The notes beneath the pieces are model-generated. The model had not been told where the DNA came from. It saw nothing but the letters and a program-made list of their open reading frames with translations, and searched no databases. Of a DNA stretch of 64,000 nt, positions 10,890 through 21,604 are shown one piece after another. The DNA is taken from NCBI RefSeq assembly GCF_030013205.1, contig NZ_CP122648.1. One strand, written 5' to 3'. Position 1 is the stretch's first letter; each line of letters opens with the position of its first letter. The DNA comes from Escherichia coli. Its GTDB lineage: Bacteria > Pseudomonadota > Gammaproteobacteria > Enterobacterales > Enterobacteriaceae. Made by a program: the position numbers and the translations under genes.

Positions 10890-12368
10890 TCACGCATTCG
10901 ACCAGCTCTGGATCGAATCCGCATTCCCCAATTCCCCATGCATCACTTCATACGATTTTTTCAGGATTACATCAGTATGTTTGGTTAACTCCTTGAAAAT
11001 GCCTTTATTCATCGCGTCGTAGCGTTTGGCATTGTTCTCAACAGGCATAAAGATATCTTTCACGCGAACCATTTTGTCGACAGCCGTTGCGTAATCCGGG
11101 TATAGCCCCAGACCTACCGCCGTATTAATCGCTGCCCCCAGGCTTGCACAACCATTAATGGCGTTACGGCGTGCCGGAAGGTTGAACACGTCGGCAAAAA
11201 TCTGCATAAACAGATCGCTGTTCGAACCGCCGCCAGTAATGATCACATGCTTTGCAAAGTGATTCATTTCATTACACATATTGTCGAAATTGTTCTTCAG
11301 CGTCAGCGCCACGCTTTCCAGTATCGAACGATATATCCATGCGTAATCCATGCTGGAATCAAAGCCGATCATAATCCCGCGTTTGTACGGTTCCCACGGA
11401 TTGGTCAGCCAGTCCAGCACCGTCATCAGACCATTACAGCCTGGCGGCACACAAGAAGCTTTTTTGTTGAGTAAATCTTCCGGTGAAAGATCCTGCGCCC
11501 TGGCATCCTGAATTAACGACTCGCCTAGCATGTCGCGCAGCCAGCTCACCGTCCACATGCCTTTGCGAATACCGTAACCTTCATACAGCAAGGTTTGCGG
11601 AATAGAAGACATAATCGGCCAGTACGCTACCGGATCTTTCGGCAGTACTTTGCCGTTCATCATCAACGCGATGTAAGTGCCAAGAGAAATTACCGCAGTT
11701 TCATCATCCAGTAACCCGGCTCCCAGTGCTTCTACCGGTTTATCACTGGTGGTACAAACAACCGGCAGCCCAGCCGGGAAATGTGTCGCCAGCGCGGCTT
11801 GAGGTGTGATATGCCCAAGAACAGTGCCCGGCATTTGCACATCAAACAGCATATGACGGGGGATATTAAACTTCTTCATGACTGCGGCATCTTCACTCCA
11901 TGCCCAGGTCTTATAATCCACCGGCCACTGACCAAAATAGTTGGCGATATTGTCTTTAAACTCGCCGGTTAAGCGATGCGTCAGATAACCCGAAAAAGAG
12001 GTGACATATGCCACGTCAGGATTCGTATGTTCGTAAGGGCGTGTAACGCGTGCATCCTGCCAGCTAATCAACGGTGCAGCTGGCGTGCCATCGGCTTTCA
12101 ATAACGCACGGCAGCAACGGATGGATCCCAGACCAATACCGACAATATCGTCTTTATTCCCGGCAAACTGACTCATCAAATCGTGACCGGCAAAACATAA
12201 TGATGCCCATAAATCGTCGTCAGGATGTTCTGCAGTATCGGCATCTGGCGTGTGCATCGGCTGTAATAAGCCTTTGCCTTCGCAAACCACGTTACCTTCC
12301 AGATCGTACATCACCACTTTTGTGCTCTGACTTCCGCCATCAATCCCTATGATGTATTTTTTCGACAT
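10890..12368 (-). CDS. ygcE: FGGY-family carbohydrate kinase
   Basis: 492-aa ORF; N-terminal IGIDGGSQSTK sugar-kinase motif; synteny with the ygc cluster. Confidence 0.8.
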   Translation of the reverse strand: MSKKYIIGIDGGSQSTKVVMYDLEGNVVCEGKGLLQPMHTPDADTAEHPDDDLWASLCFAGHDLMSQFAGNKDDIVGIGLGSIRCCRALLKADGTPAAPLISWQDARVTRPYEHTNPDVAYVTSFSGYLTHRLTGEFKDNIANYFGQWPVDYKTWAWSEDAAVMKKFNIPRHMLFDVQMPGTVLGHITPQAALATHFPAGLPVVCTTSDKPVEALGAGLLDDETAVISLGTYIALMMNGKVLPKDPVAYWPIMSSIPQTLLYEGYGIRKGMWTVSWLRDMLGESLIQDARAQDLSPEDLLNKKASCVPPGCNGLMTVLDWLTNPWEPYKRGIMIGFDSSMDYAWIYRSILESVALTLKNNFDNMCNEMNHFAKHVIITGGGSNSDLFMQIFADVFNLPARRNAINGCASLGAAINTAVGLGLYPDYATAVDKMVRVKDIFMPVENNAKRYDAMNKGIFKELTKHTDVILKKSYEVMHGELGNADSIQSWSNA

Positions 12369-12394
12369 GATTTTTCTCCTGTAATTTTCTGGAC

Positions 12395-13672
12395 TTACTT
12401 GCTGCTAGCCATAGCAGGGGCGCTATCAGCAGTACGAATTTTTTGGAACAGCAAAAAGGTAAAGACGATCACCATGGCAAGCGCCGCCATGCCCATCAGC
12501 CACATATTGCGGTAGGCTTCTGCTACGGGCAGGGTGTCTTGCCAGTGGCCGATAATTGGGTAAACGAAGACATCCGGCAGAAATCCAATCACCGAACAAA
12601 TACCTACCGTGGTGCCCATAATGTAAGACGGTGTTCTCGCTTCGCCAGGGCAGGCCCAGTACAGCCCGCGTGAGGCGTAACAGGTGAATCCCAGTAATAA
12701 AATCAAGCCAATCCCCATCGCGACCGATTGCGGGTTAGAGTTCGTGACGAGCAGGGCTGTCAACGCCAGCAAACCGATGATGGAAAGGATTTGGACCACG
12801 CGGGTAGGGGATTTCACTTTACTGTAGGTGGTGATAATGCCGCCAAGTGGGCCGCACAGCGCGCGGAAGATTTTGTTGATCACAATCCCCATGTAGCTCG
12901 CCGCCACCAGCGACATGCCGTACATTTCGGTCAGATAATTGGTGGAGTAACTCAGGATGGCGTAGATGGTGAAGACGCCAAAAATCACCATGCTGCAATA
13001 CCAGGTGGTGCTGATACGCAAAACGGCAAGGATGTCGCTAAGCTGGAATGACTGTTTTTCTTCGTTGTTAGTATTGCGCAGGTTGTTGTTATCGCTAACA
13101 AAAAACCAGCACAGAATCCCCAACAAGATGTAAACCACACTATAGATAATAATGACCGTTTTCAGGCTGGCGCTGTCATCCGGTGCAAAGCGAGAAAAGA
13201 CCCACATGGTAAACACCGCCAGCGACATTACACCGACGCCGCGCAGCCCTTCCATCCAGCCCATAATTTTCCCTTGCTCGCTATGATCGCCCAGCAACGA
13301 TGCGGCTTTAATCGACACCGACCACAGCATTAAAATCGTCGTTATCGCAAAGGCGACCTGAATACAGAGCATTACCCACAGCGGTGGATATGTTGCCATT
13401 AACAGACCCAGTAATCCGGTAATGATCATCGCGGAAGTAATCATTTTGCGGTGTGAAAATTTATCGGCAATAACGCCGCTGGGGGCATAAAGAATAATAG
13501 CCGCAATACCAAAGGTACTCATTATTAAACCTATCTCGGTATTGCTGAATCCCATAAATTTCGCCATGGGAATTTGATAAATATAACGTAAATAAGCCAG
13601 GTCGAAACTAACGCCGCCGCTAAAACTAATTATCGCGAGGGTTATCCAACGGCGATATGAGTTGTGTTGCAT
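12395..13672 (-). CDS. yqcE: MFS transporter
   Basis: 425-aa hydrophobic ORF with about 12 predicted TM segments. Confidence 0.75.
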   Translation of the reverse strand: MQHNSYRRWITLAIISFSGGVSFDLAYLRYIYQIPMAKFMGFSNTEIGLIMSTFGIAAIILYAPSGVIADKFSHRKMITSAMIITGLLGLLMATYPPLWVMLCIQVAFAITTILMLWSVSIKAASLLGDHSEQGKIMGWMEGLRGVGVMSLAVFTMWVFSRFAPDDSASLKTVIIIYSVVYILLGILCWFFVSDNNNLRNTNNEEKQSFQLSDILAVLRISTTWYCSMVIFGVFTIYAILSYSTNYLTEMYGMSLVAASYMGIVINKIFRALCGPLGGIITTYSKVKSPTRVVQILSIIGLLALTALLVTNSNPQSVAMGIGLILLLGFTCYASRGLYWACPGEARTPSYIMGTTVGICSVIGFLPDVFVYPIIGHWQDTLPVAEAYRNMWLMGMAALAMVIVFTFLLFQKIRTADSAPAMASSK

Positions 13673-13920
13673 ATCGTATTCCCATTTGTAATAGACAAAA
13701 AAAAGAGAAAAGTAAGCCGCCCTTTCAGGTGGATTACTTTTCTCAGGTCTCTAGTAATTGCAATAAGAAATAACATGGAAAGTAGTGGTGTTGTGTGAGA
13801 GTAATCACGCTTCTGCTTTTTAAAATTATTTGACAATTCGAATATCACACTGTGATTACGATCACATTAGCGATTATGCCCTTATGATAAAAATTATCTC
13901 CAGTTACCAGAGATAATGAG

Positions 13921-20065: not shown

Positions 20066-20081
20066 AAATTATCCTTATTAT

Positions 20082-20342
20082 TTATCCAAAACGGTAGGTG
20101 ATGCCGAATCCGGAAGGCGGATAGCGCCACTGTTGTAGTGTTGATTCGTCGCACAGCAAACGGCAGGTGCCACACTCCAGGCAGCCGCGATAATCAACGC
20201 GTAAGTCACCTTCCGGTGTGAGCGAAAAAAGACCAGCCGGACAAGCGTTAATCAACCGTTGTACCGTCTGACGCTCAACGGAGTCAGCCGGAACAATGTG
20301 CGGCGCATCGGCAACGCGCCAGAGATTACGGGCTACAGACAT
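20082..20342 (-). CDS. ygcO: ferredoxin-like protein (FixX-like)
   Basis: internal ATG gives 86 aa; Cys motif CLECGTCRLLC. Confidence 0.65.
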   Translation of the reverse strand: MSVARNLWRVADAPHIVPADSVERQTVQRLINACPAGLFSLTPEGDLRVDYRGCLECGTCRLLCDESTLQQWRYPPSGFGITYRFG

Positions 20343-21604
20343 CGCAGACTCCTGATAACATCGCCCGCCAGATGCCACAGGCCGTGACGACGTAAATGAC
20401 GCCAGAATAACTGGCGCAGCGGTGGAACAGGTTTATCACCCTGATCCCATAAATCGCGGGAAATATCCTGCATTAACGCAGGCCACGCACGGTACCATCC
20501 AGGGCGTTGCAAAAGCGCCGGAACATGCTGATAACGTTGTAGAACATCCCATAGCAGGCTGCGCTCGACGTTGTGATGATAAAGCGCAAACAGATTTTGC
20601 GGCTCGCGGTGCTGGCAGGCGCTTATCAGCGTTTGTGCCGCCGCCTGCGCGCCAGTTAGCGCCATATCCATGCCGCGCACGGAAATTCCGGTATTGACGC
20701 AACTGCGCAACGTATCGCCCACCAGCAGCCAGCCGTTACCGGCGTATTGCACCGGCATACTGTGCAAGCCACCTTCTGGCACCAGATGCGCACCATACTC
20801 CAGTGATTCCGTGTTTTTGATAAGCGGGCGCACTGCCGGATGCGTTTTAAAGCGAGCCAGCAGCTCGCATGCCGGAGCACGACTTTGCGTAAGGGAGGAG
20901 AGCGGGCAAACAATCCCTAACGAGAGCGTTTGTTGATTAGTATAAAGAAATGCGCCGCCGGGTAAGTCATCACAGATCCCGCCGCTGAACAGCAACGCTG
21001 CGCCTTCGTTATTCTCCAGATGAAAACGTTCTTCAATAGCGGATGTTTCCAGCGACAGCACTTCTTTGATTCCTAACGCCATTGATTCGCCAGCAGGACG
21101 AGTCACTAACCCGTGACGTTCAGCCAGGACGCTGTTGGCACCTTCTGCCAGCACCACATAACGGGCGCGGAGAATATCGTCACCACAAATGACACCACAC
21201 ACCCTGCCGTTTTCTTCATACAGCGCATCCACCGTCGCACCAGGGATGCATTCGACACCTTCTTTTTCGGCTTCGGCAACCAGCCACGGATCGAACCGTG
21301 CACGTAATACACTCCAGGATTCACCGCCGGGCTGTAAGCTGGAAAACGTCGTTGCGCCATCCGGCGTTAGCAGAGAAAGGCTTTCGTGAGTGATGCGTCG
21401 TTCAAGAGGCGCGGTCAGATGAAATTGTGGGAGGAGTTCCGCGAGCGCCTGGGTATATAAACGCCCGCCGGAAAGATTTTTGCTGCCGGGGATTTCAGCG
21501 CGTTCCAGTAACAAAACGGATAAACCCGCTCGCGCGCAGCGTAACGCGCAAGCGGTGCCTGCAATACCGGCACCAATAATAATAATGTCGCAGTCGTCTT
21601 CCAT
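20333..21604 (-). CDS. ygcN: FAD-dependent oxidoreductase (FixC-like)
   Basis: internal ATG gives 423 aa; N-terminal dinucleotide-binding motif IIIGAGIAG. Confidence 0.75.
   Translation of the reverse strand: MEDDCDIIIIGAGIAGTACALRCARAGLSVLLLERAEIPGSKNLSGGRLYTQALAELLPQFHLTAPLERRITHESLSLLTPDGATTFSSLQPGGESWSVLRARFDPWLVAEAEKEGVECIPGATVDALYEENGRVCGVICGDDILRARYVVLAEGANSVLAERHGLVTRPAGESMALGIKEVLSLETSAIEERFHLENNEGAALLFSGGICDDLPGGAFLYTNQQTLSLGIVCPLSSLTQSRAPACELLARFKTHPAVRPLIKNTESLEYGAHLVPEGGLHSMPVQYAGNGWLLVGDTLRSCVNTGISVRGMDMALTGAQAAAQTLISACQHREPQNLFALYHHNVERSLLWDVLQRYQHVPALLQRPGWYRAWPALMQDISRDLWDQGDKPVPPLRQLFWRHLRRHGLWHLAGDVIRSLRCL

Follow-up and report, generated by a model that had tools for sequence, protein, structure and literature searches.

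The stretch of DNA analysed here, 64,000 nucleotides from Escherichia coli (hereafter the window), carries at positions 10890-21604 the ygc cluster, whose ten genes are named in RefSeq as ygcE and yqcE (minus strand), ygcW, ygcU, ygcS, ygcR and ygcQ (plus strand), and ygcP, ygcO and ygcN (minus strand). The limits given in the initial annotation coincide exactly with the ygcE stop (10890) and the ygcN start (21604). A CRISPR array and queE lie on one side of this interval and queD-cysJIH on the other, and its sequence matches that of strain ETEC4067 at 100% identity. All open reading frames (ORFs) are intact, the base composition bears no mark of recent foreign origin, and, of 5426 complete E. 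coli genomes, 5060 (93%) cover >=80% of the cluster; the grouping is a real conserved cluster, not a product of chance. Its genes and regulatory features are the following:

10890-12368, minus strand: ygcE, FGGY-family kinase of 492 aa (Pfam FGGY_N/FGGY_C), second gene of the yqcE-ygcE operon
12395-13672, minus strand: yqcE, major facilitator superfamily (MFS) transporter of 425 aa (Pfam MFS_1), weakly like the D-galactonate/ACS family (NCBIfam)
13697-13762, minus strand: yqcE leader RNA, predicted antiterminator helix and terminator with U8
13794-13809, no strand assigned: CRP site 2, TGTGAgagtaaTCACg, 9/10 consensus, proposed class II site of the yqcE promoter
13851-13866, no strand assigned: CRP site 1, TGTGAttacgaTCACA, 10/10 consensus, proposed class II site of the ygcW promoter
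13899-13965, plus strand: ygcW leader RNA, predicted antiterminator helix and 19-bp terminator with U8
13990-14775, plus strand: ygcW, short-chain dehydrogenase (SDR) of 261 aa (Pfam adh_short), KduD/gluconate-5-dehydrogenase-like
14845-16299, plus strand: ygcU, FAD enzyme of 484 aa (Pfam FAD_binding_4 and FAD-oxidase_C), like alkyl-dihydroxyacetone-phosphate synthase (AGPS)
16392-17729, plus strand: ygcS, MFS transporter (Sugar_tr) of 445 aa
17707-18486, plus strand: ygcR, beta-type subunit of an electron-transfer flavoprotein (ETF; Pfam ETF), its start overlapping the ygcS end
18483-19343, plus strand: ygcQ, short ETF alpha-type subunit of 286 aa (Pfam ETF_alpha and ETF)
19490-20065, minus strand: ygcP, GlpP-family antiterminator protein (PF04309, G3P_antiterm, E 1e-62)
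20082-20342, minus strand: ygcO, FixX-like ferredoxin (NCBIfam FixX, 84 bits vs cut-off 166)
20333-21604, minus strand: ygcN, flavoprotein like FixC/ETF-quinone oxidoreductase (Pfam ETFQO_UQ-bd; NCBIfam PRK10015, 379 bits vs cut-off 466)

Each protein family named in the initial annotation (two MFS transporters, an FGGY kinase, an SDR, an FAD-linked oxidase, ETF/Fix components and a GlpP-like antiterminator) is confirmed by Pfam, and none of the ten proteins reaches an NCBIfam equivalog cut-off. The statement that the cluster has no assigned substrate also holds for the literature searched, in which the ygc genes appear only in connection with CRP sites and expression, with no functional or substrate assignment; a proteomics paper on quaternary amines in Citrobacter concerns cai/fix and not ygc.

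The two divergent operons are separated by a ygcW/yqcE intergenic region of 317 nt that holds both CRP sites, with a long hairpin followed by U8 downstream of each. The centre of site 1 lies 40.5 nt upstream of the start of the ygcW leader in E. coli (39.5-41.5 nt across 34 Enterobacterales loci), and that of site 2 lies 39.5 nt upstream of the start of the yqcE leader (39.5-43.5 nt in 34 of 34 loci). Exactly two strong CRP-like sites occur in every one of these 34 intergenic regions, and their spacing from the leaders is fixed despite intergenic lengths of 117 to 253 nt. Class II CRP-dependent promoters have their site centred near -41.5, and the arrangement fits two such promoters whose transcripts would start at the leader motif; in Firmicutes, copies of the leader sit 8-14 nt past a -10 box. 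Site 1 had been predicted by PhyloScan (PMC1794230) and is bound in vitro with a Kd of 1.7 nM as measured by CRP footprint-seq (PMC12871828), and yqcE-ygcE is reported as Crp-activated. Because CRP binds here and activates yqcE-ygcE, the cluster can be regarded as catabolic, in agreement with the initial annotation.

Each of the two leaders can be folded into two mutually exclusive structures. Upstream of ygcW, an antiterminator helix (13902-13908::13924-13930, AGUUACC::GGUAACU, loop AGAGAUAAUGAGAAA) overlaps a terminator at 13918-13959, the order of elements being CCAGUUACC-AGAGAUAAUGAGAAA-GGUAACUUCC...GGAAGUUACCUUUC-U8; upstream of yqcE, a helix AAUUACU::AGUAAU with loop AGAGACCUGAGAAA likewise overlaps a terminator hairpin followed by U8, in the order AAUUACU-AGAGACCUGAGAAA-AGUAAUCC...CUUACUUUUCUC-U8. 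The terminator stems are predicted to comprise 19 bp before ygcW and 11+5 bp before yqcE, with minimum free energies of -33.8 kcal/mol (z -6.0) and -22.3 kcal/mol (z -4.0), against -6.7 and -1.4 kcal/mol, respectively, for the antiterminator alone, and these folding predictions show termination as the default state of both leaders. A further hairpin at 13893-13917 (ATTATCTC...GAGATAAT) was left out of the element, being unconserved even in Klebsiella or Citrobacter.

The antiterminator helix is supported by covariation. In an alignment of 27 sequences, 97.9% of cells are paired between the upstream heptamer and its partner heptamer, which forms part of the 5' arm of the terminator, and five of the seven helix pairs display compensatory changes (for example GUUAC/GUAAC to GUCGC/GCGAC), the covariation spanning three phyla; none of 500 shuffles attains the observed score, and slid controls are only 19-56% paired. 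Copies of the element stand before ygcW homologues in Enterobacterales, Photobacterium, Sporomusa, Clostridia, Halobacillus and other Bacilli, and Saccharopolyspora, and also before yqcE homologues in other taxa. A covariance model (R1) of the 36-nt 5' part of the leader, searched in the window and 83 related loci, retrieves 119 copies, of which only two fall in the 64-kb window: the ygcW leader (47.7 bits, E 1e-7) and the yqcE leader (13728-13762, minus strand; 36.6 bits, E 5e-5). By simple motif search, AGTTACYAGAG at <=1 mismatch occurs four times in the window (0.6 expected), two of these being the ygc leaders. An Rfam scan at E<=1 returns nothing at the leaders, its only matches being one partial REP/naRNA4 hit and one chance snoRNA hit, and E. 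coli genome annotations carry no feature at the leader position. The divergent operons are one regulon, since each has its CRP site and both share the leader RNA, and the initial proposal that they form one module is upheld by this common control together with a gene set that is syntenic across phyla.

The distribution of the leader follows that of ygcP, with both present in 58 loci, the RNA only in 2 (one a 6-kb contig), the protein only in 1 and neither in 22 (Fisher 9e-17, the loci not being corrected for phylogeny). Residues 12-184 of YgcP cover the whole of PF04309 (positions 1-173/173, E 1.4e-62), and the protein matches Listeria GlpP in the PDB (3kts, 1e-27). The published 5' untranslated region (5'UTR) of Bacillus subtilis glpD is laid out in the same way, GGUC being followed by a 14-nt GAGAUGAGGAGA-type loop and then by GACC, which runs into the terminator arm. 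Because the leader tracks ygcP and its layout matches that of the glpD 5'UTR, we conclude by analogy that YgcP is probably a GlpP-type antiterminator with the ygc leaders as its targets, both its binding and its effector being read from that likeness. As far as can be judged from Rfam and the literature searched, the ygc leader would be the first GlpP-type antitermination element described in Proteobacteria.

The extent of the module was delineated by scanning 100,044 species genomes with YgcU-specific peptides, which reveals YgcU relatives in at least 549 species; 80 loci were fetched, and neighbours were counted in 84 loci from Proteobacteria, Desulfobacterota, Bacillota and Actinomycetota. 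YgcW is found beside YgcU in 81 of the 84 loci, YgcE in 74 and YgcP in 59, ETF subunits follow ygcU in 62-63, and YgcS (37 loci) and YgcN/O (31 loci) are restricted to Enterobacterales. The conserved core thus consists of YgcW (SDR), YgcE (FGGY) and YgcU, joined by YgcP in most loci, and ETF is accessory: about a quarter of loci have no ETF genes, and among those that keep the core without them are Halobacillus, Virgibacillus, actinomycetes, SAR324, Erwinia, Pantoea and some Serratia. The designation of the cluster as ETF-coupled therefore does not describe the core. Some genomes have only YgcW, YgcU, YgcE, YgcP and a transporter, and therefore the three enzymes must suffice to reach central metabolism. 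Between E. coli and loci outside Enterobacterales, YgcU and YgcW are 62-81% identical; across phyla YgcW ranges from 62 to 96%, and YgcU is at 64-73% in Bacillota and Actinomycetota. In Photobacterium, ygcU overlaps its ETF gene.

Between E. coli and Klebsiella, identity is 96% for YgcW, 95% for YgcP, 94% for YgcU and 91% for YgcE, as compared with 77% for YgcN, 72% for YgcR, 70% for YgcO and 57% for YgcQ; the pace of change in the ETF and FixCX genes is several times that of the other genes, which suggests weaker constraint on the electron-transfer part. A locus labelled as a Planctomycetota metagenome-assembled genome (MAG; JADFMM010000147.1, our locus L006) has a YgcU with 100% identity to that of E. 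coli and is almost certainly E. coli contamination of a metagenome bin.

A closer assignment of the core chemistry comes from YgcU, whose best PDB match is alkyl-dihydroxyacetone-phosphate synthase (5e-40), ahead of glycolate oxidase (1e-25) and LctD (1e-21). AGPS residues R419, Y578 and H615-617, positions marked by the mutant entries Y578F and R419H, align with R262, Y398 and H438-440 of YgcU, which are invariant in 14 diverse family members (alignment A1). The EHG/His metal motif (EHGxG) of GlcD-type enzymes is absent: YgcU reads HHHGIGK and NGTNMYFVY where an LctD-like paralog has GEHG[LV]G and GH..NH.H, and it scores 144 bits against a cut-off of 568 in the GlcD family (TIGR00387). The initial annotation as an FAD-linked oxidase is thus right as to family, but the Arg, Tyr and HHH residues are AGPS-like rather than those of a generic GlcD-type enzyme, and this active-site signature points to chemistry at C1 of a dihydroxyacetone-phosphate (DHAP) derivative, not to simple polyol oxidation.

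The LctD-like paralog that retains the metal motif is a second flavoenzyme encoded in the ygcU operon of anaerobes (L004 13187-16591; L003 13241-14782; L055-L057, L060, L062, L080 and L083). It often has a second ETF of its own, whose alpha subunit carries a ferredoxin domain in several loci, and a separate copy of the leader RNA precedes its operon; one possibility is that its substrate is a D-2-hydroxy acid formed in the pathway.

The remaining enzymes are less sharply defined. YgcE meets the cut-off of no named FGGY kinase, its best NCBIfam scores being 143 bits for XylB (cut-off 380) and 139 for LsrK (cut-off 528), and its best PDB matches are LsrK (1e-28) and glycerol kinases. YgcW comes close to the KduD model (350 bits vs cut-off 369); KduD and gluconate-5-dehydrogenases oxidise the CHOH adjoining a terminal CH2OH. 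The FixABCX-type set is complete, with ETF beta (YgcR), ETF alpha (YgcQ), FixC-like (YgcN) and FixX-like (YgcO) members, all under equivalog cut-offs. The putative counterparts of the canonical flavin-site motifs DGDTAQVGP (beta, bifurcating-type) and SGAIQH (alpha) read SSEGQNGQTP in YgcR and SGAAAL in YgcQ.

Taken together, we lean, with moderate confidence, towards the interpretation that the ten ygc genes constitute one inducible catabolic module under CRP and YgcP control, in which a YgcE-YgcW-YgcU core acts on a 1-substituted glycerol-type compound. Transcription would start from the two divergent promoters, each dependent on the CRP site about 40 nt upstream, and each transcript would open with the same leader, in which the strong intrinsic terminator forms by default. 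By analogy with B. subtilis GlpP, YgcP loaded with a phosphorylated intermediate of the pathway would stabilise the weak 7-bp helix with its purine-rich loop and so sequester the 5' arm of the terminator, allowing read-through into yqcE-ygcE and ygcWUSRQ. The imported compound, X-CH2-CHOH-CH2OH, would be phosphorylated at its terminal hydroxyl by YgcE and oxidised at the penultimate carbon by YgcW, in either order, to give a 1-substituted dihydroxyacetone phosphate; YgcU would then act at C1, by cleavage or oxidation, releasing X, most likely as an alcohol; the remaining C3 phosphate, either DHAP or its oxidised equivalent, could enter glycolysis directly. The C3 phosphate is the simplest candidate for the product because the three steps must deliver a central metabolite, and the regulator family of YgcP, which senses glycerol-3-phosphate (G3P), was counted in favour of glycerol-type chemistry. 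Wherever the flavin of YgcU is left reduced, its electrons would pass to YgcR/Q and, in Enterobacterales, on through YgcN/O to the quinone pool.

Several observations weigh against this interpretation. The alignment of YgcU begins only at about residue 193-215 of the 658 of AGPS, so that the N-terminal ~190 residues are absent; in AGPS this domain helps form the tunnel for the long-chain (fatty) substrate, and because it is missing YgcU can be called AGPS-like on sequence grounds, but not an orthologue of AGPS. An AlphaFold2 model of YgcU from the 14-sequence alignment (pLDDT 66, below 50 in the C-terminus that holds the active site) is too poor for a view of the pocket, and the N-terminal domain of YgcE matches FGGY models poorly. 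The catalytic cycle of AGPS is redox-neutral, and the frequent ETF partner requires an extra assumption under such a reaction. Most facultative and anaerobic lineages have ETF genes behind ygcU and aerobes lack them, which can be read in two ways: the reaction of YgcU may be net-oxidative, the acceptor being O2 in aerobes and ETF elsewhere, or ETF may re-oxidise flavin that has become adventitiously reduced in a reducing cytoplasm. The 84 loci are not phylogenetically independent, and no experiment in the literature ties any ygc gene to a substrate. Finally, the E. coli carriers YqcE and YgcS are MFS proteins, not BCCT carriers as in other phyla, and the genes for follow-up steps found there are absent; the substrate in E. 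coli may therefore differ from that in other phyla, and E. coli may take only the glycerol part or use a different X.

The nature of X outside Enterobacterales is indicated by the neighbours of the module: 15 loci have betaine/choline/carnitine transporter (BCCT) carriers, about 12 have OpuA-type ABC systems, and seven have uninterrupted (non-pyrrolysine) MttB methyltransferases, sometimes within the operon; a corrinoid protein also occurs. The leader RNA stands directly before BCCT genes in five loci and before an MttB-PanB-OpuA operon in one, and these genes accordingly belong to the same regulon. This points to a substrate that carries a trimethylammonium (quaternary ammonium) group outside Enterobacterales, and the polyol or sugar-like substrate proposed in the initial annotation does not agree with it. 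In three phyla the module is repeatedly accompanied by genes for an aldo-keto reductase (AKR) or alcohol dehydrogenase (ADH) and an aldehyde dehydrogenase; one Alkalihalobacillus operon runs aspartase-like, betaine-aldehyde-dehydrogenase-like, ADH, BCCT, ygcW, ygcE, ygcU, and in Desulfopila aspartase-like, MttB and AKR genes adjoin the module. From such neighbours, X would seem to leave as a primary alcohol, which is then oxidised to an aspartate-like betaine.

In Bacillota MAGs, Syntrophomonadaceae-like and related (L066 10004-16626, L067 13269-20650, L070 6997-13948), MttB, a PanB-like hydroxymethyltransferase, an OpuA-type ABC system and a proline-racemase-family protein are encoded together in one operon under leader control, an unusual set that matches no obvious known pathway; L070 has an adjacent gene of the octopine-dehydrogenase family, whose cluster homologue is found next to the operon in L067.

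Two candidate substrates were set aside: glycerophosphocholine is unlikely, as a simple phosphodiesterase does that job without ATP, and free trimethylamine as the substrate of MttB is out, since the associated MttB ORFs are uninterrupted. Sulfopropanediol (DHPS) is a candidate for Enterobacterales only, fitting the X-glycerol scheme and anion-type MFS carriers but not BCCT, OpuA or MttB. A more specific, and doubtful, suggestion is that the module is a catabolic route for the head groups of betaine lipids. Homoserine betaine is the ether-linked head group of the betaine lipid diacylglyceryl-trimethylhomoserine (DGTS), and deacylated DGTS (glyceryl-N,N,N-trimethylhomoserine) would be imported by BCCT or OpuA systems, or by MFS carriers in Enterobacterales, and converted by YgcE and YgcW to the corresponding 1-O-alkyl-DHAP, whereupon YgcU, running the ether-lipid reaction in reverse, would cleave the glycerol ether bond to give DHAP and homoserine betaine. 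Some bacteria might then oxidise homoserine betaine with ADH/AKR and the betaine-aldehyde-dehydrogenase-like enzyme to trimethylaspartate, which the aspartase-like lyase would split into fumarate and trimethylamine; others might demethylate it with the non-pyrrolysine MttB. This scheme fits, without proving it, the neighbours in Alkalihalobacillus and Desulfopila, the recurrent AKR and aldehyde dehydrogenase genes and the leader before BCCT and MttB genes; a literature search found no catabolic route for betaine-lipid head groups.

The evidence must also be weighed against readings in which the core chemistry is different. Closest to the initial annotation, and possible although we consider it rather unlikely, is a route in which YgcE phosphorylates a free polyol or sugar and YgcU is an ETF-dependent polyol-phosphate dehydrogenase acting at a secondary alcohol (GlpD/EryB-type), energetically like LctBCD, with YgcW providing a second redox step. 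Such a route would account for the combination of an FGGY kinase, a flavoprotein and ETF/FixCX and for the ETF genes behind ygcU in most loci; LctD, D-lactate dehydrogenase and glycolate oxidase are all detectable as relatives of YgcU, and a regulator family that senses glycerol-3-phosphate suits a polyol too. It is less easily reconciled with the AGPS-type Arg, Tyr and HHH of YgcU in place of the His/Glu metal site kept by the LctD-like paralog, with the absence of ETF from about a quarter of loci and the lineage restriction of FixCX, and with the BCCT, OpuA and MttB genes of the same regulon elsewhere, which poorly suit a plain polyol. An improbable alternative reverses the flow of electrons, YgcN/O and YgcR/Q feeding YgcU so that the C1-X bond beside the ketone would be reductively cleaved, for example to an amine or alcohol and acetol phosphate, the module being in part an anaerobic electron sink. 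Fix proteins are thought to pass electrons to CaiA in carnitine respiration, and YgcRQ/NO are paralogous to FixABCX, the neighbour in E. coli of the carnitine genes and the BCCT antiporter CaiT; the quaternary-amine link in other phyla agrees with this, and the LctD-like flavoenzyme and ferredoxin-domain ETF in the operon of anaerobes could supply the electrons. But the product would not be a central metabolite and follow-up enzymes are not conserved, the core is kept in aerobes without any ETF, and control by CRP is typical of carbon-source catabolism.

Strongly disfavoured, and very improbable in our view, is the reading that the ygc genes are mere neighbours with unrelated or decayed (cryptic) functions and that the hairpins are ordinary terminators. 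The literature contains no phenotype or substrate that would contradict it, and the ETF/Fix genes do evolve much faster than the other ygc genes, but it is at odds with core synteny across four phyla, with a conserved, covarying leader common to both operons, with the conservation of both CRP sites, and with intact ORFs in a cluster carried by 93% of E. coli genomes. The initial interpretation is supported in part; the notion of ETF-coupled polyol oxidation should give way to that of a CRP/YgcP-controlled kinase-SDR-AGPS-like module for a 1-substituted glycerol-type compound, in which ETF/FixCX would be an electron outlet particular to certain lineages.

Some further features lie around and between these operons. 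The 77-nt gap between queD and ygcN (21605-21681), which are on the same strand, contains no terminator-like hairpin and no leader motif, and the ygcNOP operon, the regulator gene ygcP included, may be expressed by read-through from queD or owe its transcription to a weak promoter that overlaps the start of ygcN. In the convergent ygcQ/ygcP intergenic region, 19392-19424 (minus strand) gives a partial Rfam naRNA4 match (29 bits, under the gathering score) that is probably a repetitive extragenic palindromic (REP) element between two convergent operons. The type I-E CRISPR array (9974-10252 and 10706-10845) has five repeats at 61-nt spacing (GAGTTCCCCGCGCCAGCGGGGATAAACCG), with 2-3 degenerate repeat remnants just downstream of the ygcE stop, and its length differs by ~122 bp, or two units, from that in the otherwise identical ETEC4067 record.

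The ygc genes are long-standing gaps in the functional description of the E. coli K-12 genome. YgcP and its two leader targets would make a defined RNA switch, and the chemistry of the three-enzyme core is open to assay. The quaternary-ammonium link across phyla is relevant to marine carbon and nitrogen cycling and to the formation of trimethylamine in the gut. Should YgcU prove to cleave a glycerol ether or related bond, it would provide the first case of AGPS-type flavin chemistry put to catabolic use in bacteria, and the pathway, if confirmed, would be a new form of flavin-dependent DHAP chemistry in catabolism.

Among known systems, the regulation is most similar to that of the B. subtilis GlpP targets glpD, glpFK and glpTQ: in both, a PF04309 protein is associated with an intrinsic terminator at the extreme 5' end of the transcript, and the 5' arm of the terminator is drawn into a short helix that closes a purine loop of 14-15 nt (GAG..GAG.GA). 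The ygc targets are, in contrast, the YgcW/E/U module and transporters rather than glycerol uptake and G3P dehydrogenase; the helix is AGUUACY::RGUAACU instead of GGUC::GACC; and the ygc system occurs in Gram-negatives, combined with the proposed class II CRP promoters, and its effector is probably not G3P itself. The enzymes have their closest counterpart in eukaryotic ether-lipid synthesis, where AGPS has in common with YgcU the FAD_binding_4/FAD-oxidase_C fold and the catalytic Arg, Tyr and HHH. The eukaryotic route uses an SDR-type alkyl-DHAP reductase and an alkylglycerol kinase, which YgcW and YgcE mirror. It differs in that YgcU belongs to a CRP-controlled catabolic operon with transporters, with ETF as its usual partner and with transport partners of hydrophilic rather than lipid type.

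The genetic arrangement recalls LctBCD of Acetobacterium woodii (PDB 7qh2), in which the gene for a flavoenzyme of the VAO/GlcD superfamily likewise stands directly beside EtfB/EtfA; YgcU, however, lacks the EHG/His metal motif, the E. coli ETF lacks a ferredoxin domain, and true likeness to LctD is seen in the second paralog, which only anaerobes have. Within E. coli, fixABCX (with caiTABCDE) and ydiQRST are paralogous sets of ETF and FixC/FixX tied to a catabolic operon, and the cai system handles a quaternary amine through a BCCT carrier; the partners of these sets are acyl-CoA dehydrogenases acting on CoA esters, whereas ygc has an AGPS-like enzyme and a kinase in place of CoA activation. 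Erythritol catabolism in Brucella and Rhizobium follows the same sequence of uptake, phosphorylation by an FGGY kinase (EryA) and action of a flavoprotein (EryB, an FAD dehydrogenase), but EryB is of the GlpD type and not of the VAO/AGPS type, and the ygc module has no isomerases and a different regulator.

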